Assembly: GCA_020724845.1 (NCBI GenBank)
Contig: DYGE01000001.1
Coordinates: 122,664-186,663 of the forward strand
Origin: Candidatus Paceibacter sp.
GTDB lineage: Bacteria; Patescibacteriota; Minisyncoccia; UBA6257; 02-FULL-45-10c
DNA length: 64,000 nucleotides
Direction of reading: 5' to 3'
Shown: piece by piece, positions 31,189 to 62,675 of the stretch
How the letters are laid out: every line of letters begins with the position of its first letter
How positions within the stretch are numbered: position 1 is the stretch's first letter
Made by a program: the position numbers and the translations under genes
Notes under the pieces: model-generated
Databases searched by the model: none
What the model saw: only the letters and a program-made list of their open reading frames with translations
Told to the model about the DNA's origin: nothing

Positions 31189-32742
31189 TTATTTCAAAAC
31201 TCTCTGAATTAGGGGGCGAGCCGCTTTTTCCCGGTCAAATTTTTCTTTGAGCTCCGCAATAAGCCCATTCAGTTCCAATTCCAACTGCCAAAGCAATACT
31301 TTGGAATTCCTCAAAACAGGCATAATCTTGTCTATCCCAGCCTCTTCCGCCGCCAAGTCCGAAAGCTCCACCAATACCCGCTCCGAAAGAGCCAGTAACT
31401 CAAAGAGGCGCTGGTTACTTTCTTGATTAAGACTATTATCGGCCGCTTGACTGAATAACGAATCGTATTTATTCCTAAGCTCTCCCATTTCGTAACTCAA
31501 ATTGTCCGTAAAAGAAATTCGATTAAGGGAATTCTTAGCCGCGGCAGCCGCCACGCTGGCTTGCCCGAAAGAAGAAGCATATTGTCCGATGGCAAAAGAT
31601 TCTTCCGCCTGCTCCAAGTTAAATTCCGCGTTTGCCAAAAGCTCATTTAAAGATTTGCTTCGCAAATTTTCTTTTTGGATTTTGTTCTCTAAAAATTCGG
31701 CGGTTTTTGAAGCTCTCGCCAGCATGTGTTCCGCCTCTGTTTTGCCTATTTTCCTAGAATTCTCTGAAAGCTCTAAAAGAAGCTGTCTTACCAAACTGAA
31801 GTCATTTTTTAATTCCTGATCGGTAAAATACTCGCGGCTTTCATCCATAACCCTAATCCTCGCGGAAGAATCCCCCGGCAGGCGCTCTAACAAAGCTGGC
31901 AAAACAGAATTAAGTTCACTAATAACTATCCTGGCTTGAGTTTCCAATAACAGATCTTCCTTGGATTGCAGGAGCAGCTCGCTTAGCCATTCATTTAATG
32001 GAAGCGACCCTTCCCAGCTATCTAATATTTCAGCAGATCTTAACGCCTTAAAAGCTCCGCCAGGCTGATTCGCTAACACGGAAGCAAAACGGATTCTGGA
32101 GCTTTCCTGGTTGTCTAGCTTAATTAAAGCGCTGGTAACAACCGCCCCGAGCTTCTTTTCTAAAGAGCTAAGCTTTCGGCTTCCTGCCGGATCGTTATCC
32201 GGCTCCAACTGATCAAATAACTTACTATGCTTCAATCCGGCATCCAGCAGGCGATTTAATAAATCGCTAAGGCCTGCGTTTCTGTCATCTCTTTCAATTC
32301 GCGCCAAATAATATCCGAGGTTATCCAGGGTGGCTTCATATGCATCAAGCGCCGAGACTAGGACCTCGCTATTATCCGGAATAATCTCTTCTAATCGCTT
32401 TAATTCCGCCGCCTTTTCATTTAAAGTATTAAGTTCAAATTCCGCTTTCTCCACGGCATTAAATTTAAAAGCGCGCAGAGTAGTCCTGCGAAACTGCTTC
32501 ATAAAATAAAACGGATTGGTGTTCAATATCCCAGGGTTAATCACTCCTAAGTCTTCCAAATCCACAGCCTCTTCTTCTATCAACCTTAGAACCAGGCTAT
32601 TTTGGACCTCCTGGGCGTTAGCAATCGGGCTTCCAAACATGGCTGGATTTAAAGCGGCGCTAGCCATCAGAGGCGCTGAAACCAAGCCGAAAACGGCTGT
32701 TAAAATAGATATTTTATTGCGTTTACCCATGAATTTCGGCAA
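31189..32742 (-). CDS. Secreted coiled-coil hypothetical protein
   Basis: Signal peptide and long helical repeats (517 aa). Confidence 0.35.
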   Translation of the reverse strand: MPKFMGKRNKISILTAVFGLVSAPLMASAALNPAMFGSPIANAQEVQNSLVLRLIEEEAVDLEDLGVINPGILNTNPFYFMKQFRRTTLRAFKFNAVEKAEFELNTLNEKAAELKRLEEIIPDNSEVLVSALDAYEATLDNLGYYLARIERDDRNAGLSDLLNRLLDAGLKHSKLFDQLEPDNDPAGSRKLSSLEKKLGAVVTSALIKLDNQESSRIRFASVLANQPGGAFKALRSAEILDSWEGSLPLNEWLSELLLQSKEDLLLETQARIVISELNSVLPALLERLPGDSSARIRVMDESREYFTDQELKNDFSLVRQLLLELSENSRKIGKTEAEHMLARASKTAEFLENKIQKENLRSKSLNELLANAEFNLEQAEESFAIGQYASSFGQASVAAAAAKNSLNRISFTDNLSYEMGELRNKYDSLFSQAADNSLNQESNQRLFELLALSERVLVELSDLAAEEAGIDKIMPVLRNSKVLLWQLELELNGLIAELKEKFDREKAARPLIQRVLK

Positions 32743-44282: not shown

Positions 44283-45767
44283 TCAGCGATAAGTTCTTCG
44301 CCACCGCGGGGCGTACGGCCACGCTCTTTCCCCTACTAGAATCGCCGCAATCCATGCCAGCATAGAAGCCAAGAAGGCCCCGATAGCAATCCAGATTTTC
44401 TGCTTCCTCGTAAGCTCTATTTCACTCTTAAGGTATTCAAACCCGCGCATGCGCACCCTTTGAAACTTGCTACTCGGATCATCCAGGCCCCAAAAGATGC
44501 GGTTAAGCATGCCTTTGCCATGGACCAGCTCCGCAGTCTGGTGCCGCAGATTGTTCTCGCTCATCCGAAAGACGAATTTCCCCTGAATCTTTCCGATCAA
44601 CGATTCCGGAGTCAAAGGGCTGCCTGACAGAGATTCCCTTATGGTAGCCGTCATATGCTCATTGCCAAGGGGCATGCCGGTAATGGCTCTCGCCCAACTC
44701 ACCGAATTGCCGTCACTGGTACCCACCAGAACAATAATGCTGTTCTTGCTGATAGCGTTCTTTTGAAAAAACTTCGGATTCTGCCAGTAGGCCTTAAGCG
44801 CCAACAGGTACTCGTCCGGATTGGCGGACACTTCGTCGTTTTTCACAATGACTAAGTGCAAGTCGCCTTCCAGTTCGGTGCCGATACCGGCGTTCAAATA
44901 AGACAAACTCTTCTGCCAGCCGTAATCATTGCCGGGGTTAAATCCAACGAAATACGCCTTACGCGCGTGATAAAAATCATGCACATCAGTCGTAAGCGCC
45001 GGAAGCAACCCTTTGGCTAGATACTTCTCAATCGCGCCGGAATGCTGCTGCAAGATGGTTCTCTCGCTTGCCAAAATGAAGTTGTCGTATCTGGCCCGCG
45101 TGGTAACCGGCCCCGGTTCTCCGGAACTGACTCTCTCCTGGACTCTCTCCCAGAAAGGCGGGATGCCTGTACCAGCCCTGCTAATCACATAATCCGGAAC
45201 ATTGACCCCAGTCCGCCAGCGATGAGCCTGCGGGTTATCCGGGAGACGATGCTCGCTGATCGTGTAATCACCGAGCGTCGTTTGAACTGTGTAAGTCGTC
45301 TCCTGATCAACATAAGGACAGCTATGATACCGCTTCTCTCTGCGCGTGCAAGTCTTATGAACCCGACGCCTATTCTCCCCGCTACCGGTATAGTAGCTAC
45401 AGTCGTAGCTTACAGTAACCCAGTACGGATCGCAGTCGTATTCGTAACGGCAAGGGCCGTCGCGAGTACAGCGGTAAACCTTGGTCAAGGCCTTCAGCTC
45501 CCAACCATTCCGGTATTCATAGAACCCGAGGTTGTTCGCTTGCGCCATTTTCCAGCCCCCGTAGAGGCTCAACGGAACGAGAAGGACGCTAATAGCGGCT
45601 AAGCCAATGGCGTACTCCGTCCAGGTGATCTCCTTATCGCTATTGGAAGAGTCCAAAGCGAACTTAACCAACAAACCTGCGATAGCAGCGGCAATGACCG
45701 CTAAGATCGCTAGAGCAAACATCGGCATGCCATACACCTCCCCTATAGGATTTTTCAGGTGCTGCAA
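44283..45767 (-). CDS. LemA-associated membrane protein (N- and C-terminal TM; DUF2207/TPM-like?)
   Basis: A 494 aa protein with TM helices at both ends, adjacent to lemA, with elevated GC. Confidence 0.4.
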   Translation of the reverse strand: MQHLKNPIGEVYGMPMFALAILAVIAAAIAGLLVKFALDSSNSDKEITWTEYAIGLAAISVLLVPLSLYGGWKMAQANNLGFYEYRNGWELKALTKVYRCTRDGPCRYEYDCDPYWVTVSYDCSYYTGSGENRRRVHKTCTRREKRYHSCPYVDQETTYTVQTTLGDYTISEHRLPDNPQAHRWRTGVNVPDYVISRAGTGIPPFWERVQERVSSGEPGPVTTRARYDNFILASERTILQQHSGAIEKYLAKGLLPALTTDVHDFYHARKAYFVGFNPGNDYGWQKSLSYLNAGIGTELEGDLHLVIVKNDEVSANPDEYLLALKAYWQNPKFFQKNAISKNSIIVLVGTSDGNSVSWARAITGMPLGNEHMTATIRESLSGSPLTPESLIGKIQGKFVFRMSENNLRHQTAELVHGKGMLNRIFWGLDDPSSKFQRVRMRGFEYLKSEIELTRKQKIWIAIGAFLASMLAWIAAILVGERAWPYAPRWRRTYR

Positions 45768-45811: not shown

Positions 45812-46687
45812 TTACTCTCCGGAAAAGACCCGTATTTTGCCGTCATTCGCTGTAATTTTCACTAGTCCGTTCAGGTCAGTCCTGTAAATCTGCGAGCCGA
45901 AACTGGCTAACCTAGCCAACGTCTGGCCGGTAGGATGGCCGTAACTATTCTTCCCTACCTCAATCACGGATATCAGCGGAGTAACCGAGCTTAGAAACTT
46001 CCAATCGGAGGAATATTTTGAGCCGTGATGGCTGACTTTCAAAATATCCGCGTCCACATCGTACTTATCAGCGATCCGCCTTTCGGTTTCATCGCTAATA
46101 TCCCCGGTAAACAAAACTTTAGCCCCTTCGCTCTCAAGCAGCGCGACCAAGCTTAAATCATTAACATCCCTGGCCCATCCGTTTTTCTCGGGTGATAAGA
46201 TGCTAATTTGAGAATCCAGATATTTTATCCTGTCTCCGGAAAAGAGAGTTATCCTCGCTACCTCTTTTTCTCTGATAACCAGTTCCAATTCCTGCCAAGC
46301 GGAGCTCTGGCTAGTTTGCCCGCCCAGCAATACCGCGCCTACTTTATAATCCTTTACAAGCTCAACGAAACCGCCGAAATGATCCAACTGCGGATGAGAA
46401 ATCATCACTAAATCTATATAACGGTCATTAACGGGCAGAATATTTTCCAGATTGGCCTGCAGCTTGCCATTCGGTTGCCCGCCGTCAATTAAAAGCTTCG
46501 GCCCGCCGGGCATAATGATCAACGAACTGTCCCCTTGCCCGACGTCTAAAAAATACAGCTCTAAATCTTGGGAGTCTGCCGGAAAAATAATTAAAAACCA
46601 AACCAGCGCGTCCAACGCTACCAGCGAGGCAACGACAATCTTGAGATGCTTGATATTATCTTCTCCTTTCATAAAATAAAAATCCAA
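45812..46687 (-). CDS. comEC: ComEC C-terminal metallo-beta-lactamase domain as a separate ORF
   Basis: LDVGQGDSSLI...DGG is the MBL fold typical of the ComEC/Rec2 C-terminus. It overlaps the upstream ORF by 32 nt. Confidence 0.7.
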   Translation of the reverse strand: MDFYFMKGEDNIKHLKIVVASLVALDALVWFLIIFPADSQDLELYFLDVGQGDSSLIIMPGGPKLLIDGGQPNGKLQANLENILPVNDRYIDLVMISHPQLDHFGGFVELVKDYKVGAVLLGGQTSQSSAWQELELVIREKEVARITLFSGDRIKYLDSQISILSPEKNGWARDVNDLSLVALLESEGAKVLFTGDISDETERRIADKYDVDADILKVSHHGSKYSSDWKFLSSVTPLISVIEVGKNSYGHPTGQTLARLASFGSQIYRTDLNGLVKITANDGKIRVFSGE

Positions 46688-48071
46688 TTAAAAATAAATA
46701 ATACAATGCCGCGGCAAAAAATCCAAAAGATTCGGTGACTATCGCCAAACTTATTTTTGAAAATAAATCTATGACCCAAAGCTCATATGACAAGAGCAAG
46801 TTCAAGGCCACTCCCACAATGCCGGCTAAAAAATCGGAAAAAAGTCCAAGACCGCCCATTATGAAACCAAGGCCCATAGTAACAGGGATAACGGAGAGGA
46901 TAAGGATGTTGGCAAGAAAGGAAGTCAGCGAGAACATGCCGAAATTGCCAAGCAGAAGCGGTACGACCGCCAGCTGGGCGGAAACCGTGGTAAGCATATT
47001 CTCTTTCCAATCCAGCCGACCCTTACCATGCATCCCGGACACATCCTGCAGAACCGGCATTAAATAAACGATTCCCAACAAAGCGGCAAAGGAGAGCTGA
47101 AATCCCAAGTCAAACGCCAAAATCCTCGGATTAAATAGGGCCATCGCGAACGCGGCTATGACGATCGCGTTTCGCATGCTGTAAAGACGCTCAGTCTCTT
47201 TCGCCAAAAGCGCTATGATACCCATAATGGCCGCCCTGATGATGGACGCTTCTCCACCGGTCATCAGCACAAATAAAATAATCACTAAGACGCTTAAATA
47301 AAAAGTGGCGCTTCTTGAAAAATAAACGCCGAAAAATCCGGCTGCCACCATAGCGATAACGGAAATATTATATCCGGAAAGAGCAACCAGATGAGTCGTG
47401 CCGCTAAGCGACATCTTCTCCTCAAATTCTTTTGAGAACTCCTGCCGTTCGCCCAAAGTAATGCCGGCCAAAAAAGCGGCTTTTTGCGATGGCAAGCTGC
47501 TCTTGAAAACCCTTATTATCCTGTTTTTCAGGCGCAGCAATGCCGCTTTAACAAAATTGCCCCGGCCGGATTCCAGCAGCTCGATTTGGGCATAGTTAGA
47601 TATGCCGGCTATGTTTTCTTTTTGATAATAATCCAGGAAATCGCCCTCCGGCCGCTTAATAATGCCGCTTATTTTTAGGGAATCGCCGTATTCAAAATCC
47701 GGATATCGCGCGGCGTTAACCTGTATTTGCCCTTTATGCGGGTCGCGCAAATTCACCAGCAGTCTCTGTCGGGATTGGAAATGTTCGGCTTTTCTGACTA
47801 CGCCGGTAACCTCTGACGACTCATCAAAAGGAATTTCTATAAATCCCCGCGCGTAATCAAAAACGAAAAAATATAATCCGCCAATTAACAGCGCCAGCGA
47901 CAAAAAAGCAATCAGAAATTTCCTGAAAAATAAAAAATAGGCTGGCAACAGCAAGCCCAGCAGCAAAACCGCCGACAAACTATTAAAGACGCTAGCGAGG
48001 AAAATTCCTAAGAGGAAAAAGGCGCAAAACCAGAAAGCTAGGTCATGAAGATGCATCCCTCTAAAATACAA
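46656..48071 (-). CDS. comEC: ComEC/Rec2 competence channel, N-terminal membrane portion
   Basis: Polytopic membrane protein of 471 aa with the competence-domain pattern, immediately upstream of the MBL ORF. Confidence 0.65.
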   Translation of the reverse strand: MYFRGMHLHDLAFWFCAFFLLGIFLASVFNSLSAVLLLGLLLPAYFLFFRKFLIAFLSLALLIGGLYFFVFDYARGFIEIPFDESSEVTGVVRKAEHFQSRQRLLVNLRDPHKGQIQVNAARYPDFEYGDSLKISGIIKRPEGDFLDYYQKENIAGISNYAQIELLESGRGNFVKAALLRLKNRIIRVFKSSLPSQKAAFLAGITLGERQEFSKEFEEKMSLSGTTHLVALSGYNISVIAMVAAGFFGVYFSRSATFYLSVLVIILFVLMTGGEASIIRAAIMGIIALLAKETERLYSMRNAIVIAAFAMALFNPRILAFDLGFQLSFAALLGIVYLMPVLQDVSGMHGKGRLDWKENMLTTVSAQLAVVPLLLGNFGMFSLTSFLANILILSVIPVTMGLGFIMGGLGLFSDFLAGIVGVALNLLLSYELWVIDLFSKISLAIVTESFGFFAAALYYLFLIGFLFYERRR

Positions 48072-48949: not shown

Positions 48950-50980
48950 CTAGTACCATGGGGTCGGCATCCTCTGTAAAAACTGCTCAATAGTTAAATT
49001 CGCTTTGTCAGCTGAATACCACGGCCTCAATAAATCGGCTAATTTTCTCTGCCTGAATATTTCTTCTGCCCTGGCTTCTTGCGGGCTGGCAAAAGGTATC
49101 TCTTTAGAGAAGAAGTAGTCGCCCCACCAGGATCTTCCTCGATGAGCCATAAATTCCTTGACTGTCATATTTTTAACCGCGTCGTACTGCTCCAAGCTTA
49201 GCCTGGTATTCCGCCAAATGTAATCATTATAGCCCTCCACCGCGTTCGCGTAAGATTCCGCGTTGCTGAACTCCGCGAATAAATCAGAAAAATCTTTACC
49301 GCCTTCTTCCGGTACCACCTCTCCCATCTTGTCAAATAGGCCCTTTAAGATATCTTCTTTTTCTCCTAAATTGCCATGCTCAAAATGGAAGCGAAGATTG
49401 CGGATTTCATTAGCGTCGAGCTGATTATCTCTGAAAGCTTCCGCGGCGTCTTCAGCAACAGCCGTTTCTAGCCACTTCGGCGGCTGTTTTCCGGCCTGTT
49501 CATACATAGCGTATAAATCCTGATTCGTGCCAATAGAAAGCTTATCTTTTACATCAATGACTTCAAAATGGCCCGGCCCGCCTCCTTCTCCGACGATAAA
49601 ACGAACCTGATCGCCCTCATGAACCAAAGCAATGTCTTTAATAGGAACTTTAACGCCATCAACTTCAACCGTGGAGTTTTCCCAAGCGGCCCGAAATTCT
49701 TCCGGAGACATTTTCGCTTCCGCCGCCAGCGCTTGAGCGGCTCCAGAAACGCTTCCGCCTTTTTCTATAGTGTGCAAATATTCTAAAGTTTCGCTTGCCT
49801 TGATAGCCTCTTCCGACGAAGATCCTTCAGGAATAATCGGTGATTTCTCTTTAGCAATTTCTTCAGGAGAAACTACAACGCCTTCCGGGCTTCCGCCGAA
49901 AAGCTTCATAACATTTTCAACAGCATGCATTGCTACTCCAGACCCGACTAAAGTGCCAAGCGTACCCGCCATTAAATAACGCCTGAAACGCATCTTATTT
50001 TCCCACTCCTTAAGATCGCCCATAACTCCCGCCATCTTACTCTCCAAAGCCGCATCACTTAATTTCAGGTAATTCACCATATCAGTAGCTGTTTTGACTT
50101 CCCTTTTTTCCAAGCTTTCCGATACCGCTCTTTGGTATTGCTCAATCGCTTCCACATTCAATGCTTTTTCCTGAGACTTTTTCAGCCAGCTTTCTAAACC
50201 GACGCTTAATGCGCCACTTGCCAAAACCTTCTGGAGAGCATATTCGCCGGTTATCAGCGCTCCAAGGGCCAATCCGACTCCCCCGCCAGTTCCTGCCGCG
50301 ACAACCGTTCCACCGACCAATGCGCCGGCCAAGACCAGTTTTGTCTTTAGAGGAGCGCTCTTATAATCCTCTGCCAGCTTTCTAAAGAAACCCAAAAACT
50401 TATTTCCAGCGCTAACTTCCTTGGTCTTAGCTTCGGCCTCAAATTGGCTTTTGAGATTGTATACCTTAGTAAATTCACTAACCAAAAATTGGGTGCCGCC
50501 TTTTTCCAATTCCGCCTTCCTTTCTTCATCTTTCAGCCCCTTTTCATCCATTTCCTTTTCCGCTGCGTTCAATCTCTGCTGAAGATAAATTTGCCTTTCC
50601 GTAAAGTATTCCTTTTGAGCCGCTTCCAAATCCGCCAGCATCTGCTTGGCTTTAGGGTCAATTTCAAAATGCCTGGCCTTTTCTTCTTCAGTTAAGCTAG
50701 TACTTTCTAAACCTTCCTTCCTTTTATCAATCTGCAATTTAGCCCGCAGGTATTTTTCGCGCGCCTGATCTAAAAACTCTTCCGGAGCTTTTTCTTGAAT
50801 CTCCGGCTCCGCGCCTTCTTCCCAAGCTGGCACCAATTCTGGTTCCTCCGAAGTTTCTCCGGTTGTCCTGACTTTAATTTCGGGGAGATCATCGCTTTCC
50901 ACGGTCGGCAAAACCGGCCTTTCTTTCGGCTTTTCTTCTTGTGGATTTAGCTGGGGATTTTTTGGAATTTCCGCGGCCAT
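48950..50980 (-). CDS. Large hypothetical protein with a central Gly-rich TM segment
   Basis: A 676 aa helical, charged protein with a central LVLAGALVGGTVVAAGTGGGVGLALGALITG segment. Confidence 0.35.
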   Translation of the reverse strand: MAAEIPKNPQLNPQEEKPKERPVLPTVESDDLPEIKVRTTGETSEEPELVPAWEEGAEPEIQEKAPEEFLDQAREKYLRAKLQIDKRKEGLESTSLTEEEKARHFEIDPKAKQMLADLEAAQKEYFTERQIYLQQRLNAAEKEMDEKGLKDEERKAELEKGGTQFLVSEFTKVYNLKSQFEAEAKTKEVSAGNKFLGFFRKLAEDYKSAPLKTKLVLAGALVGGTVVAAGTGGGVGLALGALITGEYALQKVLASGALSVGLESWLKKSQEKALNVEAIEQYQRAVSESLEKREVKTATDMVNYLKLSDAALESKMAGVMGDLKEWENKMRFRRYLMAGTLGTLVGSGVAMHAVENVMKLFGGSPEGVVVSPEEIAKEKSPIIPEGSSSEEAIKASETLEYLHTIEKGGSVSGAAQALAAEAKMSPEEFRAAWENSTVEVDGVKVPIKDIALVHEGDQVRFIVGEGGGPGHFEVIDVKDKLSIGTNQDLYAMYEQAGKQPPKWLETAVAEDAAEAFRDNQLDANEIRNLRFHFEHGNLGEKEDILKGLFDKMGEVVPEEGGKDFSDLFAEFSNAESYANAVEGYNDYIWRNTRLSLEQYDAVKNMTVKEFMAHRGRSWWGDYFFSKEIPFASPQEARAEEIFRQRKLADLLRPWYSADKANLTIEQFLQRMPTPWY

Positions 50981-51008: not shown

Positions 51009-52343
51009 TTAGACAATCACGCCTCCGCCAAGCATCATTATAGAATTTGAACCCTCCTTCGCTGAAGCTTCCGCCTTCGCCAAGGCTTCGGCGGACAGGT
51101 CGGCGGGCAAGTAAAACACCGCCGATTGCCCAGAGGCAACAAATTTTTGAGGTTGGCTAAATACAAGCTTGAATAAAGAATTATGAATCACGAATGATGC
51201 GGGAACTAGCGGCTGCCTATAGCGCACTCGCGCTAAAACTGGAACGCTTAATTCCTTATTCTTAATTCCCCTGCCGCCTGCCCGGCCAGGGGGCAGGCTT
51301 AATTCCATATTTACAAGATTCACATCTCTTAACTCAATCTCCTTTTTGTAAAGCATCGGGTCGTCCTCCGAAGCTATAACGACAGTATTAGTTTTCACAT
51401 CCTTGCTCGCCACATAAAATGGTTGTTGGTTATTAGTTGTCGGTTGTAAGTTCACCCCTATGCGCCTTTGGCCGATCGTATAAAAATACGCTCCGCTATG
51501 CTTTCCGACTGTTTCGCCAGCGGAATTCAAGACTAAGCCCATTTTTTCCGGAATGTAATTACCCAAAAAATCCTTAAGCGTAACCTGCCCAAGAAAACAA
51601 ATCCCCTGCGAATCCTTTTTCTCGGCGTTCGGCAAGCCAAATTTCTTTGCCAGCTTCCTCACCTCCGGCTTGGTATATTCACCAATCGGAAACAAACAAT
51701 GCCGTAGCTGCTCCTGCGTCAGCGTCCATAAAAAATAGCTTTGATCTTTATTTTTGTCTTTAGCGATATATAAAGAAAAAATATTTTGGGTCAATCTGCC
51801 GAATTGTCGTGGAGAAACTACGGAAGCGCCAAAAGATTGGTTTCCGCTGAAGGCGGAATTTTGGCGCTGAGGCGTAGCGGGCACTCGCCGCTGGAGCGAG
51901 TGAACCGCGGTTCTCGCAGACGATTCGACTGAGCGACTTCTGCCCAAGCGGACATAGTGCCCGGTCGCCACATAGTCCGCCCCCATTTCCAATGCCTTCT
52001 GCAGAAACAATCCAAACTTAATCTCCTTATTGCACATCACATCCGGATTCGGCGTAAGACCTTTGCGATATCCGTCAACCATATATTCAACCACTTTATC
52101 TTTATATTCCTGCTCCATGTCAAAAACATAAAATGGAATGCCTAAAACCTCCGCCGCTCTTCGCGCGTCCTCCGCATCCTGTTCCGCGCAACCGTCAACG
52201 TTGTAGCACTTTAAATGCGCGCCAACCACGTCAAAACCGCGCTCTTTCAAAAGCGCCGCCGCAACAGACGAATCCACTCCCCCGCTCATTCCCACGAATA
52301 CCTTTTTGATCTTTTTACTTTTTGGCATAGCTATAAAATACAA
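51009..52343 (-). CDS. mnmA: tRNA-specific 2-thiouridylase, with a low-complexity insertion of about 60 aa
   Basis: PP-loop VGMSGGVDSS, then CNKEIKFG, ATGHY and DQSYFL motifs. An Ser/Arg/Gln-rich insert lies between HYVR and DQSYFL. Confidence 0.8.
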   Translation of the reverse strand: MYFIAMPKSKKIKKVFVGMSGGVDSSVAAALLKERGFDVVGAHLKCYNVDGCAEQDAEDARRAAEVLGIPFYVFDMEQEYKDKVVEYMVDGYRKGLTPNPDVMCNKEIKFGLFLQKALEMGADYVATGHYVRLGRSRSVESSARTAVHSLQRRVPATPQRQNSAFSGNQSFGASVVSPRQFGRLTQNIFSLYIAKDKNKDQSYFLWTLTQEQLRHCLFPIGEYTKPEVRKLAKKFGLPNAEKKDSQGICFLGQVTLKDFLGNYIPEKMGLVLNSAGETVGKHSGAYFYTIGQRRIGVNLQPTTNNQQPFYVASKDVKTNTVVIASEDDPMLYKKEIELRDVNLVNMELSLPPGRAGGRGIKNKELSVPVLARVRYRQPLVPASFVIHNSLFKLVFSQPQKFVASGQSAVFYLPADLSAEALAKAEASAKEGSNSIMMLGGGVIV

Positions 52344-54471: not shown

Positions 54472-54499
54472 AAAAAAATATCCACGTCCGAAGACGTGG
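54472..54499 (-). terminator. Intrinsic terminator ending the GC-rich non-coding transcript
   Basis: On the minus strand CCACGUCUUCGGACGUGG is followed by AUAUUUUUUU. Confidence 0.65.
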
Positions 54500-55100
54500 A
54501 TGAAGGGGGTCGGAAAACGCACTTGGCGATCCTGAAAGGCGAGGTTTTCCCTGGCCTTAATCAAGTTCGCTTATCAGTATCCAGCTTGCCCCGATGTTAT
54601 GGGTAAGCGGGCGGGAATCAGATGTTGAAGGCCAGAGATCCGGCGCGCGCGATTGGCGCGCGGCCCATGGATTGCCTTCTTCCGAGGATTCCCACTGGAT
54701 ACTTGTCACCCTGCATTTCGCAAGGCTGCGTTTTCCGGTGAAGGTACGAAAGAGAAGTGGCTTTTGCCGGTGCTTGATTTACTCGCGTGCTTCAGACGCA
54801 TTTGCGAAGTAAATCCCGACAGGCCCGGATGTCGCGACACCCGAGACGCTCCATATGGGAACACAGCCCATAGAAGCGAAGCCGACCTGATGCGCCGAGG
54901 GAGCGAGTCACGGGGGATCGTGCCCGTTCCTTTGTACCCCACCAACTCCGCCTCAATTGCGGTAGCTGGACTCGGTGACCAGGTTCTAACCATCCCAGAG
55001 CGTTGTTGCGCCCTGGGTGCATTCTCCGCGGCGCCAGCCGACGCCCCCGTATCGGGAGGGCCAGCTCGTTCTGCGCCTGACCGGAGAAGATTTTCAAGGT
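54500..55100 (-). ncRNA. Candidate large structured ncRNA, or an unusually long attenuator-type leader, of about 620 nt; identity unknown
   Basis: About 58% GC against about 45% around it. It has no credible ORF in any frame; the six-frame ORFs here are Arg/Ser/Pro-rich artefacts that overlap on both strands. It is bounded by a consensus promoter (55108-55135) and the intrinsic terminator (54472-54499), and contains many local GC helices. Confidence 0.45.
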
Positions 55101-55894: not shown

Positions 55895-55927
55895 AACCGC
55901 TAGTTCAAAAACTGGGCGGTTTTTTAT
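55895..55927. terminator. Bidirectional intrinsic terminator shared by efp and the convergent ATPase gene
   Basis: Hairpin aaccgc...ggcggtt flanked by an A-run and a T-run. Confidence 0.55.
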
Positions 55928-57609
55928 TATTCTGGCGCGATTTCATCTAAATCATCCTGGTCGCTTTGCTTGCTTAAAGACTTTTCCAAAGCCGCGCGCA
56001 ATTCGCTAAGGTCGGCTTTCTGCTCTGGCCGCCTGTCCGGCCTTTCCGGCTTTGGAGCGATAGGCGGAGGGGCTGGCGCCCGCGGCGGCCTGCTCGGCTC
56101 CTTCTCTTGGACCGGCTTCAATACATCGGCTAGCGGCCGTTCATGTTTCTTAGGCGGCCGTTCAGTTCTTGGCTGTCCCTCGTCTTTTCTTGGCGGCCTT
56201 TGGAAGCGCTGTTCCGCGCCTCGGTTGTAACTTGGGCGAAGCATCCTGGACATCGGCTGTTCCTGCCTCCTGCCCGGCCGATCAGAGCCAGCCCCTTCCG
56301 GCGCCGACTGCTTGCTTCGTTCCAGCCAATCTTCCGCGATCTTTCCTTCTATCACCTCTCTAGGCGTTCCGTAGTTTTTTCTAGTGTTTTGAATAATCAA
56401 TTCTTTGAAATTTTTCTCCGGGGTCGGATGCGGCGGAATAGTCATGGCCGAAAAAGGCCTGGAAGCAATGCCGTCAATCATCAGCTTAGTGTAGAAATTG
56501 TATTTGGGAAGATTCACGAAATCAATAGCCATGAAATCCGGCTGAAATTCCCTTTCCAGGAATTCCGCGTCTTCCGCGCCGACACGGAAAGAAAGCAATG
56601 TGCCGACGTTTCCGAAAATCGCGTCACGGACTTTAGTGTTGGTATCGCGGACCAGCTGCCTGATATATTGGTGGGCTAAAATCAAACAAAGGCGGTATTT
56701 TCTCGCTTCAGACAAGATGCTGGCGAAAGAATCAGTGGCAAAGTTTTGAAACTCGTCAACATAAAGATAGAAATCTTTTCTTTCGCTTTCCGGGATATCC
56801 ACCCGCGACATAGCGGCCAGCTGCAGCTTGGTAATGACCATTGCCCCTAAAAGCGCGGAGTTGTCCTCGCCGATTTTTCCCTTAGACAAGTTAAAAATCA
56901 GTATCTTTCTCTCATCCATTGCCTTTCTCATATCAATAGAAGAATGGGACTGACCCAGAATATTTCTGATCAAAGGGTTGGTGACCAGTTGGCCGACTTT
57001 GTTCTGAATGGCCGCCGTCGCCTCCGTCTCAAATTTCTGGCTGTATTTCGCGTACTCATTCACCCAAAAACCCTTAACCACCGGGTCTTTTAAATTATCA
57101 ACCACCTTTTTGCGGTAATCCTTGTCGGAAAACATCCGCATGATGCCTAGCAGCGTTGAACCGGGATACTCCAAAAGAGCCAGCAAAGCGTTGTTTAAAA
57201 TGTATTCCATGCGCGCCGACCAAAGATCGGCCCAAATTTTCTTGAAGACGCCCATAATGCCGGAGGCGACCAAATGCCGGAATTCGGTACTGACTTGTTC
57301 CAAGGGATTAAAGGCAATCGGATGCGCCATATCAGAAGGATCAAAATAAATCACGTCCTTTAAGCGCTCTTCCGGAATAAAATCCAAAAGGCGCTCGGCG
57401 AATTCTCCGTGCGGATCCACTACGCCGATTCCATGTCCGGCAAGGATATCAGAAATAACCATATTTTCTAATAAGGTCGTTTTACCGACGCCGGTTTTTC
57501 CGATCACGTACATATGGCGGCGGCGGTCATCTATCTTAATTCCAAACTGGATATTTTGGTTCCGGAAATTGGTTATCCCGAAATTTGTTTTTTTCTCTTG
57601 TTCTAGCAT
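55927..57609 (-). CDS. VirD4/TraG/TraD-like (type IV coupling protein / HerA-FtsK superfamily) P-loop ATPase with a Pro/Arg/Glu-rich disordered C-terminus
   Basis: Walker A YVIGKTGVGKTT, Walker B FYLYVDEFQNF, and a following ILAHQ segment typical of TrwB/TraG-type ATPases; 560 aa. Confidence 0.55.
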   Translation of the reverse strand: MLEQEKKTNFGITNFRNQNIQFGIKIDDRRRHMYVIGKTGVGKTTLLENMVISDILAGHGIGVVDPHGEFAERLLDFIPEERLKDVIYFDPSDMAHPIAFNPLEQVSTEFRHLVASGIMGVFKKIWADLWSARMEYILNNALLALLEYPGSTLLGIMRMFSDKDYRKKVVDNLKDPVVKGFWVNEYAKYSQKFETEATAAIQNKVGQLVTNPLIRNILGQSHSSIDMRKAMDERKILIFNLSKGKIGEDNSALLGAMVITKLQLAAMSRVDIPESERKDFYLYVDEFQNFATDSFASILSEARKYRLCLILAHQYIRQLVRDTNTKVRDAIFGNVGTLLSFRVGAEDAEFLEREFQPDFMAIDFVNLPKYNFYTKLMIDGIASRPFSAMTIPPHPTPEKNFKELIIQNTRKNYGTPREVIEGKIAEDWLERSKQSAPEGAGSDRPGRRQEQPMSRMLRPSYNRGAEQRFQRPPRKDEGQPRTERPPKKHERPLADVLKPVQEKEPSRPPRAPAPPPIAPKPERPDRRPEQKADLSELRAALEKSLSKQSDQDDLDEIAPE

Positions 57610-57614
57610 GTAAT

Positions 57615-58898
57615 TTAAATTGGCAAATTAGCCGGCGGTTCGCCCTTGCGGGTGTCCAAACGGCGCAGTAATGGCGCTTCAACCGTAACCAGCGGGAAGT
57701 GGAAAACTGTAGCTAGTTCCTCGGTATTCAAAATTGACGATTTTATGGGAAACCAGCGCATTTTATAAAGTTCATAGATGACGCGCTTGCGATAATTAAG
57801 CCGTTTCTTCCTAAACCAGCTTTTGTAAGTTAATTTCCTTGAAGTTATAAAGGTCAGCGTATCCGTGATCGGCTTAAAGCCGTTCATATCCTGGGTGCTG
57901 AACTGCTTGAAAGCGCCATTCACCGCCGCGATATTTGCGGGCGTAAAACTGTCTTGCCTATCAATATAAATAAACCTGATGGCAGCTTCATATCCCAGCT
58001 TGGACATTTTATTCTCCACGCCCTCCAGGATGTTCTTCTCGCCCGGAGAAAGGTGTAGCATCTTAATCTTCTCATCTTTCTTAGGGGCCTCTGACCAGAC
58101 AGGATATTCCGCCGGGGCTAAAGTTAGATTCCGCAAAAACTCAAAAAATCCGCCGACAATTACTTCAATCCAACCAGGCTTCTTCTCCTTTTTGCGATCC
58201 ATAATCTTATCCCGAATTTCATCGCCTTCCGCCTTCCATTTGTCCGGCACCGGCTTGAGTAAATATTGCAGCCAGATTGCTTCGCCCTCCTTCAGCCGAG
58301 ACATAACTTCCGTGATGGCGGCAATCGGATCTAAGCGCTGCTCCTCAACATTTGCCTCAAAAAATTCGTAAGTCTTGATAGGATAGACATTCTCTTTAGC
58401 TAGAATAAAATCGTTGCCCCACAAATCATAAGCGTCGTTGGGAAGCGTATCCGGCATCAGCTTAACATAATCTTCCGCTTCATGGAGCTCGGCGTCCGGG
58501 TATTCTGAATAGATCACTGATTCCACAAGATTTCTATGCGTCTCCGGGCAACGAACATAAAAATGCACTCCGCCGGCATAACCGACCAATTCAAAGGTAA
58601 ACCAGCTTAAATCGGATCCTTTGAAATATTTGTCCTCAAAACTCGGGTCGGTAACGTAAATGGCGTGCAGGGCGGAAAAAATATTTTCCATTGCCTTAGG
58701 GGTTTTAAGAATGTTGCGCGGTATCTTTATCTCTAAAAGAACCCACTTGATATCCAGCTTCCAAAGACGATTTAACCCCCACACCCAAAAATCTCGCCAG
58801 ACAAAAAACAAGCCGAGCGGAACAATAATCCACCAGCTGACTAAAAAAACCTCTAGAGTAGACTTGCCTATGCCGAAAAGAACGGTATTGAAATCCAT
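57615..58898 (-). CDS. Membrane protein partner of the VirD4-like ATPase
   Basis: Two N-terminal TM helices and a roughly 350 aa soluble domain. It lies 5 nt upstream of the ATPase gene in the same operon. Confidence 0.4.
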   Translation of the reverse strand: MDFNTVLFGIGKSTLEVFLVSWWIIVPLGLFFVWRDFWVWGLNRLWKLDIKWVLLEIKIPRNILKTPKAMENIFSALHAIYVTDPSFEDKYFKGSDLSWFTFELVGYAGGVHFYVRCPETHRNLVESVIYSEYPDAELHEAEDYVKLMPDTLPNDAYDLWGNDFILAKENVYPIKTYEFFEANVEEQRLDPIAAITEVMSRLKEGEAIWLQYLLKPVPDKWKAEGDEIRDKIMDRKKEKKPGWIEVIVGGFFEFLRNLTLAPAEYPVWSEAPKKDEKIKMLHLSPGEKNILEGVENKMSKLGYEAAIRFIYIDRQDSFTPANIAAVNGAFKQFSTQDMNGFKPITDTLTFITSRKLTYKSWFRKKRLNYRKRVIYELYKMRWFPIKSSILNTEELATVFHFPLVTVEAPLLRRLDTRKGEPPANLPI

Positions 58899-58953
58899 GT
58901 ATTAATTTTAGAACGAACAAGAACTAAAGTAAAAACCCTTGTATAACTAAAAG

Positions 58954-60045
58954 TTAGACAGACTTTACAGTATAACGCCCGTCGTCCAATCTCCTAAAGT
59001 GCTTGCGGTTTTGCAAGTTGATCATTACGGTGTTTTTCTTCAGTAATCGCTCCTTTAACACTAAATTCAACAGCTCTTTCGGAGTTAACGGCCCGTTTTG
59101 CTTAAGAATTCTAGCCATAACTTCCCTGGCAGTGCCCGGCATCAAACCGAACTCCTGCAAGCCGTACATTCCCCTGCCAACCAGAACAAAGCGGTTATCT
59201 TTAATAAGCTCATTATGGACAGTTTGAGGATGGGCGACTTTTTCAGAATTTTTTCTGACTTTATTAATCATCTTGGCAATATCTTGAAAATGGAGCGGTT
59301 TTTCGTTTTTCTTGAGCACTAAATGGGCCCAGTCTCGTACAGTTCTCGGATTAACCTCCGGCCATTGAGCAAGGCCGAAATCTCCGTATTCATTAACGTG
59401 AAATTCTTTGGAGGTGGAAATGTAATTAAGGGCAACCAAATCTTTCAGGTTATGCGGCTTAATTGCTTCGCTGAAAAGCGAATCAACATCCGCGTGGCTG
59501 ACTACCTGGCTCTTCTTGCCCTTCATAAATTTAACGAGTTTAGCCACTAACCCAACGGCCTTCTTCTGGTCTGCTTTATTCAAAGCCCAGTAGCTGTAAA
59601 CATTTTCGTCTTCCGGAACAAAAGTCAGATCTTTGGAGGCTTCTAAAAGAAAGCGGGCCTTGTTGCCAAAATTAGCCGTGTTGGGGTCGGCTACCATGGT
59701 TTTTAAGTCAGCGAACAGAAGGCTCTCCCTTCGGATGCCGCCGACATTCTTCAAGTGGGCCTTAACCAATTCAACAAATGCCTTGCCTTCGTTTTTCTGC
59801 AAAAGCTTATTAAGATCATTCAGGGCCCCGGCCTCAATCTGCCTTACTCTTTCTCGGGTAATACCCTTACTATCGCCGATTTCGGCTAAAGTTTTGGTTT
59901 GGCCGTCTTTCAATCCAAAACGACCCTCCAAAACTTCCCTTTGCCTTTGGTCGAGGGCTGCTAATAAATCACTGACTATTTTTGATACCTTGACGTTCAT
60001 AAAACGATTTATGTAGATAGTACCATAATTCCTTTTGGAATGCAA
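58954..60045 (-). CDS. Hypothetical protein with a sigma-70 region-4-like HTH at the N-terminus
   Basis: TLAEIGDSKGITRERVRQIEAGAL closely resembles the sigma factor region 4.2 HTH. The remaining roughly 280 aa are unassigned. Confidence 0.4.
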   Translation of the reverse strand: MHSKRNYGTIYINRFMNVKVSKIVSDLLAALDQRQREVLEGRFGLKDGQTKTLAEIGDSKGITRERVRQIEAGALNDLNKLLQKNEGKAFVELVKAHLKNVGGIRRESLLFADLKTMVADPNTANFGNKARFLLEASKDLTFVPEDENVYSYWALNKADQKKAVGLVAKLVKFMKGKKSQVVSHADVDSLFSEAIKPHNLKDLVALNYISTSKEFHVNEYGDFGLAQWPEVNPRTVRDWAHLVLKKNEKPLHFQDIAKMINKVRKNSEKVAHPQTVHNELIKDNRFVLVGRGMYGLQEFGLMPGTAREVMARILKQNGPLTPKELLNLVLKERLLKKNTVMINLQNRKHFRRLDDGRYTVKSV

Positions 60046-60219
60046 GTCTTACCTACTAAATATTTAACATCTATATAATAGCATACTTATATGAAAAGCG
60101 CAAGTCCCCACCAAGATTCGCGTAAGATCATCAAATAATCTGCTATCTTTTACGACTATATGTATTTTTTAAAATCACACATAGGATAACAGATTCCAGA
60201 AAAAATGTAAAGAGTCACA

Positions 60220-60462
60220 ACCACCAGAACCTATTTCAGCTGCACGCCTCCACCTGATAAACATAACCAGAAAGTATCCTCTGTGCGGCAACTGACGGAA
60301 TCCTGATTTGCTTGGTTCGCTTGCGAAAATCAGGATGAGACGTAGGCGGCGCTGATCGCAGGAATCAGCGAACGCTGGTGCCGGTAGGAGGATACTTTCT
60401 GGTTATGACACTTTGTCCCCACCGCGCAACCCGACGCAGCTGAAATAGGTTCTGGTGGTTTT
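60220..60462. repeat. Nested-palindrome element, copy 2
   Basis: Perfect outer inverted repeat accaccagaacctatttcagctgc / gcagctgaaataggttctggtgg. It has the same conserved flanks, the same 20 bp inner inverted repeat and the same conserved core as copy 1, with a different variable inner hairpin. It lies 18 nt 3' of the secF stop. Confidence 0.6.
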
Positions 60463-60479
60463 ACCTTCGGATCTAAATT

Positions 60480-61358
60480 TTATTTCCGGTGCAAAAAAGT
60501 AAGAAGTGGGCTGGCTACAAAAATGGAAGAATAAGTCCCGACCAGGGTGCCTATTAAGATGAGAAGCGTGAAAAAGCTTAAGGAAGAAGCGCCGAAGAAG
60601 TACAAGGCAACCAACACTAAAACCAGGGTCAAGGAAGTGTTGACCGATCTCGCCAGGGTCTGATTGATGCTGTCATTTATCACTCCGTCAAAACTGGCGT
60701 TCCTTTTAGAGAGCAAAAGATTTTCGCGTATTCGGTCAAACACAACGATTGTATCGTGGACCGAGAAGCCCATTATCACCAGAATGGCGACGATGAAATT
60801 CGTATCCGCCTCAACGCCGTATTGCCATCCCCAGAAAGCGAACACGCCGGCTGAAATCAGAGCGTCATGAAACAAAGTTACTAAAGTAGTCACTCCGTAC
60901 TTCCAAGAGCTGACCGGATAAGAAACCTTCCTGAAGGCGAAAGCAATATACAGAGATATGCCAATCAAAACCAGAACAAAAGCCAAAAGAGCGCGGCTGC
61001 GAAGCTCGCGTCCGATTGCCGGCCCGATGCTGGCAAAACTCAATTCTTCAAATTCTCCCAATTCCGCCTCAACTAATCCGGCCAGCTCCTGATGCCGTTC
61101 TTCCGAAATGTCTCTCATCCGGATTGAAAAATCTCCGGAGTTTTCGCCTTGCCTGACTAAAGCGTCTTCCTGATTTTCCAGCGCAGCTCTTATCGCGCTT
61201 ATACTAACATCATCAGAGATAAAACGTACCTGCCAGTGAGTTCCTCCAACAAAGTCTATTCCTTGTTTAAATCCGAAAACCGCCATGCTGGCTATGCCCG
61301 CTACAACCAGCAAAGCTGAAACTGTCAGATATATTTTTTTATATTTAATAATTTCCAT
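60480..61358 (-). CDS. secF: Protein translocase subunit SecF
   Basis: GIDFVGGTHWQV and the SecF TM pattern. Confidence 0.85.
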   Translation of the reverse strand: MEIIKYKKIYLTVSALLVVAGIASMAVFGFKQGIDFVGGTHWQVRFISDDVSISAIRAALENQEDALVRQGENSGDFSIRMRDISEERHQELAGLVEAELGEFEELSFASIGPAIGRELRSRALLAFVLVLIGISLYIAFAFRKVSYPVSSWKYGVTTLVTLFHDALISAGVFAFWGWQYGVEADTNFIVAILVIMGFSVHDTIVVFDRIRENLLLSKRNASFDGVINDSINQTLARSVNTSLTLVLVLVALYFFGASSLSFFTLLILIGTLVGTYSSIFVASPLLTFLHRK

Positions 61359-61370
61359 AATCGAAAGTTG

Positions 61371-62675
61371 TTAGTTGCCTGCCCGGCCAGGGTTAGTTGT
61401 TAGTCGCCCGGCAAACGCCCTTAATAATGTCCTAGTAACTGTAATCGCTGTGAACATGCTTACCAAAACACCGATGAGCAAAGTCAGGGCAAACCCCTTA
61501 ACAAAACTGGAAGTGAAATAGAACAGAATAATAGTAGTCAAGATAGTTGTTAAGTTGGAATCGCGGATTGAAGTCCAGGCTCGCTGGAAACCATCCTCCA
61601 CCGCTAATGCCCGGGAAGATCCTTTCGCTAATTCCTCTTTCATGCGCTCAAAAATTAGGATATTAGCGTCCACTGCCATGCCGATAGAAAGAACGAATCC
61701 AGCTATGCCAGCCAGTGTCATAGTTATGGAAAAGACCTTGAAAACTGCCAAAGTCAGAATTACATAAATTCCAAGCGCCATCACAGAAGCAAGTCCAAGC
61801 CCCCAATAATACAAAACCATAAACAGCATCACCGCCAGCGTGCCCCAAGCCCCTGCCATGATCATTTTCTGAAGAGAATCCTGTCCCAGAGACGCCCCAA
61901 CTGTCTGCTGATTGATCAGTTTAATTGGAGCCGGCAAAGCTCCAGCATTAAAGCGCTCCACTAATTCCCTGGCTTCCTGCAGGGTAAATTGGCCGGTAAT
62001 CTGCGCCTGCCCGCCAGTAATCTTTTCCGAAACTCGCGGAGCGCTGATTAAATTATTATCCACAAAGATCGCGAGCGGCTGGCCGACGTTTCTCTCCGTT
62101 ATGGCCTCAAAGAGTTCCGACCCTTCCGAATCAAATTCTATAAATATCTGCGGCTGATTGGTGACATTGTCAAAAACTAACTGGGCTTTTTTAGCGTAAC
62201 GTCCGGTTAATTCGGTCGGCCGGAAAGTCGGCTGATCCACCGTTTCAAAATCCAGGCCTAATTCTTCCGGCACCTCAACTTGCTCAACCGATTCAACCTC
62301 GGCAAAAAATAGAAATGGGGTTTCGCCGATCTGCTGAATGGCTTCGCTGATATTCTGAACTCCGGCCAGCTCAACTAATATCCGATAAGAATCCCCGGCT
62401 TTGGAAGTAACCACATTCGGCTCGCTAACGCCGAACAAATTAACCCGGCGCTCCAAGACATCCCGGAGACCGGACATCACCGGATCGCGATCCGCGAAAT
62501 CAACCCCGGACATATCAACTTCATATATCAATTGGCTTCCGCCAACTAAATCCAAACCAAGCCGCCACGGCAAGAAGCTGTCTATGGCTTTTCCTTGCGG
62601 GTACACAAAATAGCCGGCTAGAACCGTTATCGCCAAAATTACCAAAAGAGTTGAAAATGCTTTCGCGCGAGACAT
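61371..62675 (-). CDS. secD: Protein translocase subunit SecD
   Basis: GLDLVGGSQLIYEVD, the periplasmic domain and the C-terminal TM bundle. Confidence 0.85.
   Translation of the reverse strand: MSRAKAFSTLLVILAITVLAGYFVYPQGKAIDSFLPWRLGLDLVGGSQLIYEVDMSGVDFADRDPVMSGLRDVLERRVNLFGVSEPNVVTSKAGDSYRILVELAGVQNISEAIQQIGETPFLFFAEVESVEQVEVPEELGLDFETVDQPTFRPTELTGRYAKKAQLVFDNVTNQPQIFIEFDSEGSELFEAITERNVGQPLAIFVDNNLISAPRVSEKITGGQAQITGQFTLQEARELVERFNAGALPAPIKLINQQTVGASLGQDSLQKMIMAGAWGTLAVMLFMVLYYWGLGLASVMALGIYVILTLAVFKVFSITMTLAGIAGFVLSIGMAVDANILIFERMKEELAKGSSRALAVEDGFQRAWTSIRDSNLTTILTTIILFYFTSSFVKGFALTLLIGVLVSMFTAITVTRTLLRAFAGRLTTNPGRAGN

Follow-up and report, generated by a model that had tools for sequence, protein, structure and literature searches.

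A VirD4-type ATPase and a DUF8128 membrane protein of Patescibacteria as putative halves of one coupling protein

What is the role of a coupling-protein-like ATPase encoded beside a membrane protein and a sigma-like helix-turn-helix (HTH) protein in the chromosome of an ultra-small bacterium of the Patescibacteria? The question is raised by three co-oriented open reading frames (ORFs) in a stretch of 64,000 nucleotides (nt) from Candidatus Paceibacter sp. (contig DYGE01000001.1, positions 122,664 to 186,663), called the window below. All three are located on the minus strand and encode an HTH protein (58954-60045), a DUF8128 protein (57615-58898) and an ATPase (55927-57609). The HTH and DUF8128 genes are separated by 55 nt and the DUF8128 and ATPase genes by 5 nt. 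An earlier note, made from the letters of the DNA, had proposed a candidate minimal module for DNA or protein translocation. The ORFs, the Walker motifs, the Pro/Arg/Glu-rich tail, the 5-nt gap and the upstream HTH gene that it described were all found in the sequence, and the three-gene arrangement is real and not an artefact of chance ORFs. Sequence alignments show the DUF8128 protein and the ATPase to be the N- and C-terminal halves of a single type IV coupling protein (T4CP) encoded by two genes.

The ATPase and its membrane partner

The ATPase (560 amino acids, aa) was compared with the Pfam and NCBIfam profiles. It matched TrwB_AAD_bind (E 5.8e-13; 48.9 bits for a gathering cut-off of 20.5), DUF87 (E 1.5e-10; 42 bits, cut-off 23.2), T4SS-DNA_transf (E 2.2e-10; 40.4 bits, cut-off 20.1) and TraG-D_C (E 1e-7; 32.4 bits, cut-off 22). 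The first three are the profiles with which the earlier note had wanted its placement in the VirD4/TraG/TrwB family checked, and all of them score above the cut-off; the placement is supported. The top NCBIfam match was the VirD4-like CD1115 family. P-loop_TraG remained below its cut-off (15.3 bits versus 25.8), TIGR00929 was matched at E 0.037 over the P-loop only, and neither AAA_10 nor CagE_TrbE_VirB was matched in Pfam. The Walker A motif GKTGVGKTT (aa 37-45, nt 57475-57501) was read directly in the sequence and aligns to the P-loop of TrwB; its residues G37, K38, G40 and K43 are invariant across 51 homologues. Walker B, YLYVDEFQNF (aa 281-290, nt 56740-56769), was read in the same way and aligns to WLFIDEL of TrwB, with V284 through F290 invariant across the 51 homologues.

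An AlphaFold model of the ATPase was built on these 51 homologues. The predicted local distance difference test score (pLDDT) was 80-97 in the core, and an all-helical insert was modelled at aa 108-232 in the nucleotide-binding domain. The model was then compared with known structures using Foldseek. T4CPs were matched, namely DotL (1.4e-9), TrwB (8e-8, with a target-normalised TM-score of 0.55) and Cag-beta (4e-7); after them came HerA (2.7e-7), the C-terminal domain of VirB4 and the C-domain of DndH. There was no FtsK among the top 50 fold matches. The FtsK_SpoIIIE profile also remained below its cut-off (13.6 bits versus 24) and covered the P-loop region only. Identity with FtsK, or replacement of it, was ruled out on these grounds and on the lack of a gamma domain. 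HerA was considered as well. No NurA, Sir2 or DUF4297 gene is a neighbour; DUF87 scores above its cut-off, and the HerA-fold matches are weaker than those to T4CP structures.

No hydrophobic segment was detected in the ATPase by hydropathy, which makes it a coupling-protein-type ATPase without a membrane domain. By its profiles and predicted fold, it is a VirD4/TrwB-type T4CP minus the usual N-terminal membrane domain. Its C-terminal tail (aa 426-560, nt 55930-56334) is disordered and rich in Pro, Arg and Glu (23, 19 and 16 among 135 residues), with a pLDDT below 50 over most of aa 432-529. The tail ends in a predicted amphipathic helix (aa 534-551, nt 55957-56010) in which L537 is invariant and L545 nearly so, despite the variable length of the tail among homologues.

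The membrane partner is a protein of 427 aa. PF26449 (DUF8128) is annotated for the window gene and for all 120 listed homologues, and a literature search retrieved no paper naming this domain. The protein had been described as having two transmembrane (TM) segments. The membrane anchor was recovered, and only one TM segment was confident. It spans approximately aa 13-37 (nt 58788-58862) within a hydrophobic N-terminal stretch of 45 residues (Kyte-Doolittle windows up to 2.17), and AlphaFold places a long helix at aa 3-49. Two adjacent hydrophobic segments are present at the N-terminus in 11 of 53 DUF8128 homologues and could form a hairpin. The remainder of the protein (about 380 residues) is a soluble alpha/beta domain, predicted to be cytoplasmic because basic residues come after the TM segment.

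The AlphaFold model of the DUF8128 protein had a pLDDT of 82 and a predicted TM-score (pTM) of 0.76. Its 13 best PDB matches were all R388 TrwK/VirB4 (best E 7.6e-6, probability 1.0). In BFVD, the matches were phage G gp156 (2e-17), a 913-aa protein of phage JL (4e-16) and phage G gp155 (7.7e-7), the last being an ATPase of the VirB4/TraG-P-loop type. The modelled fold thus resembles the N-terminal domain of VirB4. A link at the sequence level was also sought and was rejected, as nothing was found in a profile search of the PDB sequences or in a comparison with the N-terminus of gp155; the term 'VirB4-N-terminal-domain-like' is therefore used here for the predicted structure. Near the C-terminus lies a conserved motif, SILNTEELATVFHFPLVTVEAPLLRRL (aa 388-414, nt 57657-57737). 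Its residues E393, E394, A396, H400, P402, V406 and P409 are invariant in DUF8128 homologues, and its consensus is ILNTEELATxYHFP..VEAPLLRRL. In alignments with fused proteins, described below, this junction motif coincides with the residues just ahead of the ATPase domain, and it is predicted to be a docking or linker segment to the ATPase.

Fused relatives, conservation and the HTH neighbour

Relatives carrying both parts in one polypeptide were found in phages and on a plasmid. On the profile phrog_5156 (824 positions), the DUF8128 protein matches positions 64-323 and the ATPase positions 397-815, the latter at 1.8e-61. Using hhalign, the DUF8128 profile was aligned, with a probability of 96.4 percent, to phage G gp156 (825 aa) over residues 15-318; the C-terminal part of gp156 matches the window ATPase. 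It was also aligned with residues 36-313 of an 883-aa plasmid protein of Shouchella clausii (probability 97.9 percent, E 3e-13), in which residue 326 aligns to residue 10 of the window ATPase. The junction is seamless, because in the Shouchella protein the DUF8128 part stops at about residue 315 and the ATPase part starts at about residue 317. The three alignments show a single coupling protein with split genes, in place of the two-component variant with a dedicated membrane partner that had been proposed. A minimal, self-sufficient translocation module is also not supported, as the membrane part of the pair amounts to one or two helices and lacks a linked channel protein.

The fused proteins of Bacillales plasmids and Bacillus phages (the Shouchella 883-aa protein, phage G gp156, CP-51 gp91 and phrog_5156) have the same modules as the window pair in the same order and can be aligned across the gene boundary. 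Unlike the pair, they are single polypeptides without an N-terminal TM anchor, belong to conjugation or plasmid-maintenance modules and share 20-29 percent identity with the window proteins. On the 31-kb S. clausii plasmid NZ_CP012476, the fused gene is followed by Replic_Relax and then by TcpC, TcpE and an 837-aa AAA_10 (VirB4-like) ATPase; the fused protein fills the coupling-protein slot of a Gram-positive conjugation cluster. The same plasmid has genes for partition (ParM type), for a primase and for a topoisomerase. A Replic_Relax protein also comes after the fused gp91 of phage CP-51, where an actin-like segregation protein is encoded nearby, and in phage G, gp156 adjoins the VirB4-like gp155. 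Further homologues of the ATPase (27-39 percent identity) were found on plasmids of Streptomyces, haloarchaea, Sulfolobus and alphaproteobacteria. Because of these plasmid and phage contexts, the ancestry of the ATPase is placed in machinery for DNA transfer and plasmid maintenance.

An additional observation concerns the fused genes themselves. A fused DUF8128-like/T4CP gene, a Replic_Relax gene and a gene for an actin-like partition protein (ALP/ParM) occur together both in phage CP-51 (829-6314) and on the Shouchella plasmid (3218-10573), as a recurring phage and plasmid module that pairs plasmid-style segregation with a coupling-protein ATPase. The HTH protein of the window was tried as an analogue of Replic_Relax, the neighbour of the fused forms, and was rejected for lack of similarity (hhalign probability 0.2 percent).

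The pair was also set against better known systems. With the T4CPs VirD4, TrwB, TraD and DotL, the ATPase shares the RecA-like nucleotide-binding domain, the Walker A and B motifs, the helical insert and a C-terminal extension suited to adaptor binding. It differs from them in having no two-TM N-terminal domain; its anchor would come in trans from the DUF8128 protein, with its VirB4-like predicted fold. The window pair is, moreover, chromosomal core and unusually conserved, with no type IV secretion system (T4SS) gene or relaxase encoded alongside among the large ORFs checked. With VirB4 (TrwK of R388) and the VirB3-VirB4 fusions, the pair shares the layout of a membrane helix, an N-terminal alpha/beta domain and a C-terminal ATPase, which in the pair too would be hexameric. 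Unlike VirB4, the window ATPase does not match AAA_10 or CagE_TrbE_VirB, and no PDB chain, VirB4 included, is similar to DUF8128 in sequence. If the models are taken at face value, the reconstituted protein is a hybrid in which a VirD4-like ATPase comes after a membrane helix and an N-terminal domain of VirB4 type. The pair also resembles an arrangement of plasmid pIP501, in which the soluble TraJ, a coupling ATPase devoid of TM segments, is recruited to the membrane by a separate protein, TraI. For TraI, which belongs to a plasmid conjugation system, an origin as an N-terminal domain split off from its own coupling ATPase is not known.

Relatives occur in at least 593 species representatives of GTDB. 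Synteny was counted in the best 80 loci by ATPase similarity, taken from species-representative genomes and covering Parcubacteria (Paceibacteria) and ABY1 lineages (Falkow-, Uhr-, Magasanik-, Kerfeld-, Doudna-, Morani- and Buchananbacteria). The DUF8128 gene was located immediately 5' of the ATPase gene in 69-70 of the 80 loci (median gap 12 nt), and several loci without it are truncated contigs. In 59 loci the HTH gene precedes DUF8128, at a median distance of 63 nt, and its synteny is seen in Saccharibacteria also; secD-secF were found further upstream in 36-39 loci. Within these loci, the pairing that the earlier note had wanted checked is strongly conserved, and the HTH gene is syntenic as well. 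An FtsK/SpoIIIE or HerA-type ATPase with no conserved pairing, the outcome by which that note would have been overturned, was not what was found: the T4CP profiles and folds score best and the pairing is conserved. In three loci that lack DUF8128 beside the ATPase gene, another conserved string was seen, consisting of a HIT-family protein, the ATPase, a small CxxC zinc-ribbon protein and mnmA. In the window too, mnmA (51009-52343) is close to the cluster.

Median identity to the window proteins was 34.5 percent for DUF8128, 36 for the HTH protein, 51 for SecD, 43 for SecF and 63 for the ATPase, this last value being somewhat inflated because the loci were chosen on ATPase similarity. With an E threshold of 1e-3, the DUF8128 profile retrieved 3,177 cluster representatives. 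For all three proteins, the nearest named homologues are from Candidatus Harrisonbacteria and other Paceibacteria/Parcubacteria (70-75 percent identity), and the Saccharibacteria framing of the earlier note is not supported for the window. Labels of some related metagenome-assembled genomes as Saccharibacteria, Gammaproteobacteria or Bdellovibrionales were treated as unreliable, because the same Patescibacteria gene string was present in them.

The HTH protein contains a Sigma70_r4 domain (nt 59812-59967, aa 27-78; Pfam E 1.6e-14) and a HARE-HTH domain (nt 59149-59346; E 4.6e-9), the remainder being completed by a C-terminal winged helix. RNA polymerase delta has the HARE-HTH fold in its N-terminal domain, and a weak match to TIGR04567 was recorded. 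The earlier note had called the HTH near-identical to sigma-70 region 4.2. The closeness was upheld, as the family profile matches the solved region 4 of RpoD at E 7e-20; the added HARE-HTH domain had been missed. No sigma region 2 was found and all NCBIfam sigma scores are far under the cut-off; because region 2 is absent, the protein is not considered a sigma factor. Its homologues are about 348 aa long, and the true start is probably the ATG at 60000, which would give 348 aa. Most likely it is an essential factor that binds RNA polymerase or DNA. The conserved position beside the pair suggests that it may be co-regulated with the pair or act as its DNA adaptor.

Published data bear on both genes. 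In Quinonero-Coronel et al. 2025 (PMC12102498), 5,713 VirD4-type homologues are reported from 2,918 of 3,035 Patescibacteria genomes, VirB4 is reported from 2,417 genomes, only 148 of the 5,713 homologues are near virB4, and a possible exaptation of the coupling-protein gene is noted by the authors. The window ATPase belongs to the orphan T4CP population counted there. In the transposon sequencing (Tn-seq) study of S. epibionticum by Wang et al. 2023 (PMC10633639), the essential T4SS cluster is described without a recognisable coupling protein or relaxase. SEML1_0293 (2,766 nt, 921 aa) carries T4CP domains at residues 402-719, preceded by an N-terminal extension of about 400 residues, and is non-essential at all time points. 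Directly upstream, SEML1_0294 encodes an essential 349-aa Sigma70_r4 and HARE-HTH protein; the HTH gene followed by the ATPase gene is the order seen in the window. A second P-loop protein, SEML1_0142 (about 1,019 aa), carries a TraM-recognition-domain name and an FtsK-like ECOD assignment and is essential.

From domain layout, length and synteny, we infer that SEML1_0293 is a fused counterpart of the window pair. Since SEML1_0294 is essential while SEML1_0293 is dispensable, the HTH protein would be more than an accessory of the module. The same records speak against the central role in host association that had been suggested: the presumed counterpart is dispensable for epibiotic growth while the T4SS is essential. 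Replacement of FtsK by the ATPase is likewise disfavoured, the presumed Saccharibacteria counterpart being non-essential and a separate FtsK-like protein being essential there. Patescibacteria seem to carry two coupling-protein/FtsK-like ATPases of differing essentiality, which fits the approximately two homologues per genome that can be drawn from the counts in PMC12102498.

Genomic setting and non-coding elements

The gene efp is convergent with the 3' end of the cluster. Upstream of the HTH gene are secD (61371-62675) and secF (60480-61358), also on the minus strand; as the frequent upstream neighbours they are given as context only. comEC (46656-48071; Competence domain, E 6e-46) is approximately 7.9 kb from the cluster, in agreement with the 8 kb noted earlier, a proximity without demonstrated meaning. 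The other genes of the window are housekeeping genes (PBP2, AlaRS, DnaG, an AspRS-type synthetase, a MurC-like ligase, MnmA, EF-P and SecDF). No break in GC content or GC skew was seen between the locus and its flanks. On account of this continuity and of the housekeeping neighbours, a mobile-element origin was ruled out; the gene string is a vertically inherited core.

Of the large ORFs of the window, 22 were checked, 10 of them with Pfam and 12 for motifs. Neither a VirB4 nor a large P-loop ATPase besides the one described was found among these 22 (small T4SS components were not screened exhaustively), and the earlier statement that the window holds no other T4SS component is upheld to that extent. 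A scan of the locus for promoters and terminators gave matches at chance level only. Four large minus-strand ORFs of 676, 549, 517 and 494 aa (48950-50980, 19667-21316, 31189-32742 and 44283-45767) gave no Pfam hit with an E of 1e-5 or lower and have no Walker A motif. Each contains 1-3 hydrophobic segments, and the 676-aa product has an acidic N-terminal region with much Glu and Pro. All four probably encode envelope proteins specific to the lineage.

Two non-coding elements were observed. The first (54472-55100, minus strand) occupies about 630 nt between efp and an NTP-transferase gene; it has no convincing ORF and looks GC-rich. Its predicted folding is much more stable than that of shuffled sequences (z -6.9 on the minus strand versus -3.75 on the plus strand) and closes with an intrinsic terminator at approximately 54472-54505, formed by the hairpin AUCCACGUC-UUCG-GACGUGGAU and followed by AU7. 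No Rfam family was matched even at E up to 1, no tmRNA was detected by ARAGORN, and no blastn match was obtained among the 80 related loci, few of which share the neighbourhood. The element is a candidate large unclassified structured RNA. The second element lies in the 434-nt region between secF and the HTH gene. It is a near-perfect palindrome of about 250 nt (60180-60470) with perfect stems of 26 bp and 20 bp, a minimum free energy of -124.7 kcal/mol and a z of -8.4. A second copy was found at 3498-3768 (85-96 percent identity), and no Rfam match was obtained for the element. The two copies suggest a repeat resembling a miniature inverted-repeat transposable element, or a repeated structured RNA.

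Proposed role, rival readings and significance

The reading that we favour, and hold to be reasonably probable, is that the pair is one split T4CP, acting as a membrane-tethered hexameric substrate motor derived from a Gram-positive conjugation lineage. The DUF8128 protein would be anchored in the cytoplasmic membrane. Its conserved C-terminal peptide would dock on the beta-strands at the N-terminus of the ATPase and so restore the junction that is covalent in the fused homologues, and a hexameric ATPase ring would in this way be tethered to the membrane. ATP hydrolysis would then drive a substrate to a membrane conduit encoded elsewhere, for which the best candidate may be the chromosomal monoderm-type T4SS of Patescibacteria. 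The substrate would most likely be DNA, the likelier choice because of the genomic contexts of the fused relatives, or possibly an unfolded protein. The tail helix of the ATPase may recruit the substrate itself or else an adaptor. Coupling proteins of Gram-positive conjugation, plasmids and phages would thus have given rise to a vertically inherited core pair of the Patescibacteria, with a conditional role, for example in DNA exchange, that is not essential for growth on the host.

Several results weigh against this reading. Among the large ORFs checked in the 64-kb window, the pair has no T4SS gene, relaxase or channel protein linked to it, and such linkage is missing in most genomes too; in about 8 of the 80 loci the ATPase gene is elsewhere, without an adjacent DUF8128 or HTH gene. 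Conservation is far above that of plasmid coupling proteins, which hints at a housekeeping role unlike conjugation. The TM-scores between DUF8128 and VirB4 are 0.31-0.35, were obtained with a predicted model and describe a likeness that is structural only, without its equivalent in the PDB profile search or at the gp155 N-terminus. According to PMC12102498, T4CP homologues are present in 96 percent of genomes versus 80 percent for VirB4, so that some copies may act without a T4SS. The pair would also not be required for the essential function of the T4SS, because in PMC10633639 SEML1_0293 is non-essential and T4SS genes are essential; the orthology of SEML1_0293 is itself drawn from domain layout and synteny, not from alignment.

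A tentative alternative, clearly less probable, is a housekeeping DNA motor independent of any T4SS, serving uptake behind ComEC, clearing or segregation of DNA at division, or DNA export. By analogy with the gamma domain of FtsK or with TraM, the sigma-r4/HARE protein might then be the DNA-recognition subunit, an idea of the same tentative standing. It would suit the core chromosomal setting among secDF, efp, murC-like, mnmA and comEC genes, the higher conservation of the ATPase than of SecD or SecF, and the linkage to a DNA-binding protein across classes, Saccharimonadia included. The near-universality of coupling-protein homologues relative to VirB4, their location mostly apart from the T4SS locus and the contrast between a dispensable SEML1_0293 and an essential T4SS, all as given in the two papers, point the same way. 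The same S. epibionticum data are unfavourable in other respects, as the presumed fused counterpart is non-essential and an essential segregation role is already covered by the FtsK-like SEML1_0142. comEC is also dispensable, and the essentiality of type IV pili and the T4SS does not run through ComEC. The FtsK_SpoIIIE score and the fold matches argue against an FtsK-like motor, and the HTH protein, a putative member of the machine, is essential on its own. A bolder version, in which the pair and the essential sigma-r4/HARE-HTH protein make up a Patescibacteria-specific, T4SS-free machine, is doubtful. The HTH protein would there deliver DNA, or nucleic acid bound to RNA polymerase, for exchange with the host, and the pair would be a VirB4-VirD4 intermediate that kept the VirB4 N-terminal domain. 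If true, obligate epibionts would have a new way of moving DNA between cells.

It is unlikely that the motor handles no DNA and instead recruits or unfolds effector or surface proteins for export with a T4SS or beside Sec. In its favour, Patescibacteria T4SS clusters are mostly without relaxases and have been proposed to export proteins, two of the best fold matches (DotL and Cag-beta) are coupling proteins with protein substrates, and secDF is a frequent upstream neighbour. A disordered tail ending in a helix, reminiscent of the adaptor-binding tails of DotL and TraD, can be counted on the same side. However, secDF is not adjacent in about half of the loci nor in S. epibionticum, the fused relatives have genes for DNA handling as neighbours (Replic_Relax, primase and partition genes), and the conserved neighbour binds DNA or RNA polymerase. 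An ATPase of an anti-phage or conflict system, HerA-like or mad8-like, is very improbable. The PADLOC mad8 model was matched at 3.6e-16 and HerA and DndH more weakly, Foldseek returned HerA defence complexes and the DndH C-domain, and homologues occur in phages and plasmids. Against these stand the lack of adjoining MADS, Dnd, Sir2 or NurA genes, a housekeeping block that is syntenic over hundreds of species and not a variable island, and T4CP models and structures that outscore the HerA ones. A HerA-NurA or defence system (mad8, DndH) was rejected, since partner genes are missing and the locus is a syntenic core.

The split-T4CP reading reveals no new kind of secretion system, and the existence of the gene, as opposed to its anatomy, is already in the literature. 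Compared with the available text of PMC12102498 and PMC10633639, what is new here is the DUF8128 half, the relation between split and fused forms, the fold resembling the VirB4 N-terminal domain and the secDF-HTH-DUF8128-ATPase string. If SEML1_0293 is indeed a fused counterpart, the linkage of HTH and ATPase genes reaches the Saccharimonadia, and fusion is probably the ancestral state, with the split originating in the Paceibacteria/ABY1 lineages. The ATPase would then not be needed for growth on the host in laboratory conditions, and the HTH protein would have an essential role of its own.

A large part of bacterial diversity belongs to the Patescibacteria, and in PMC12102498 their approximately 5,700 coupling-protein homologues are mostly away from a T4SS and without an assigned role. 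With the present analysis, these orphan T4CPs gain an anatomy: a putative two-gene, membrane-tethered coupling protein whose N-terminal half is DUF8128, with fused counterparts in Gram-positive conjugation modules and a conserved, most likely essential, RNA-polymerase-like HTH neighbour. A split T4CP of this kind bears on the origin of VirD4-type coupling proteins from VirB4-like ancestors. The role of the orphan T4CPs is now testable in one genetically tractable member, S. epibionticum, through SEML1_0293 and SEML1_0294.

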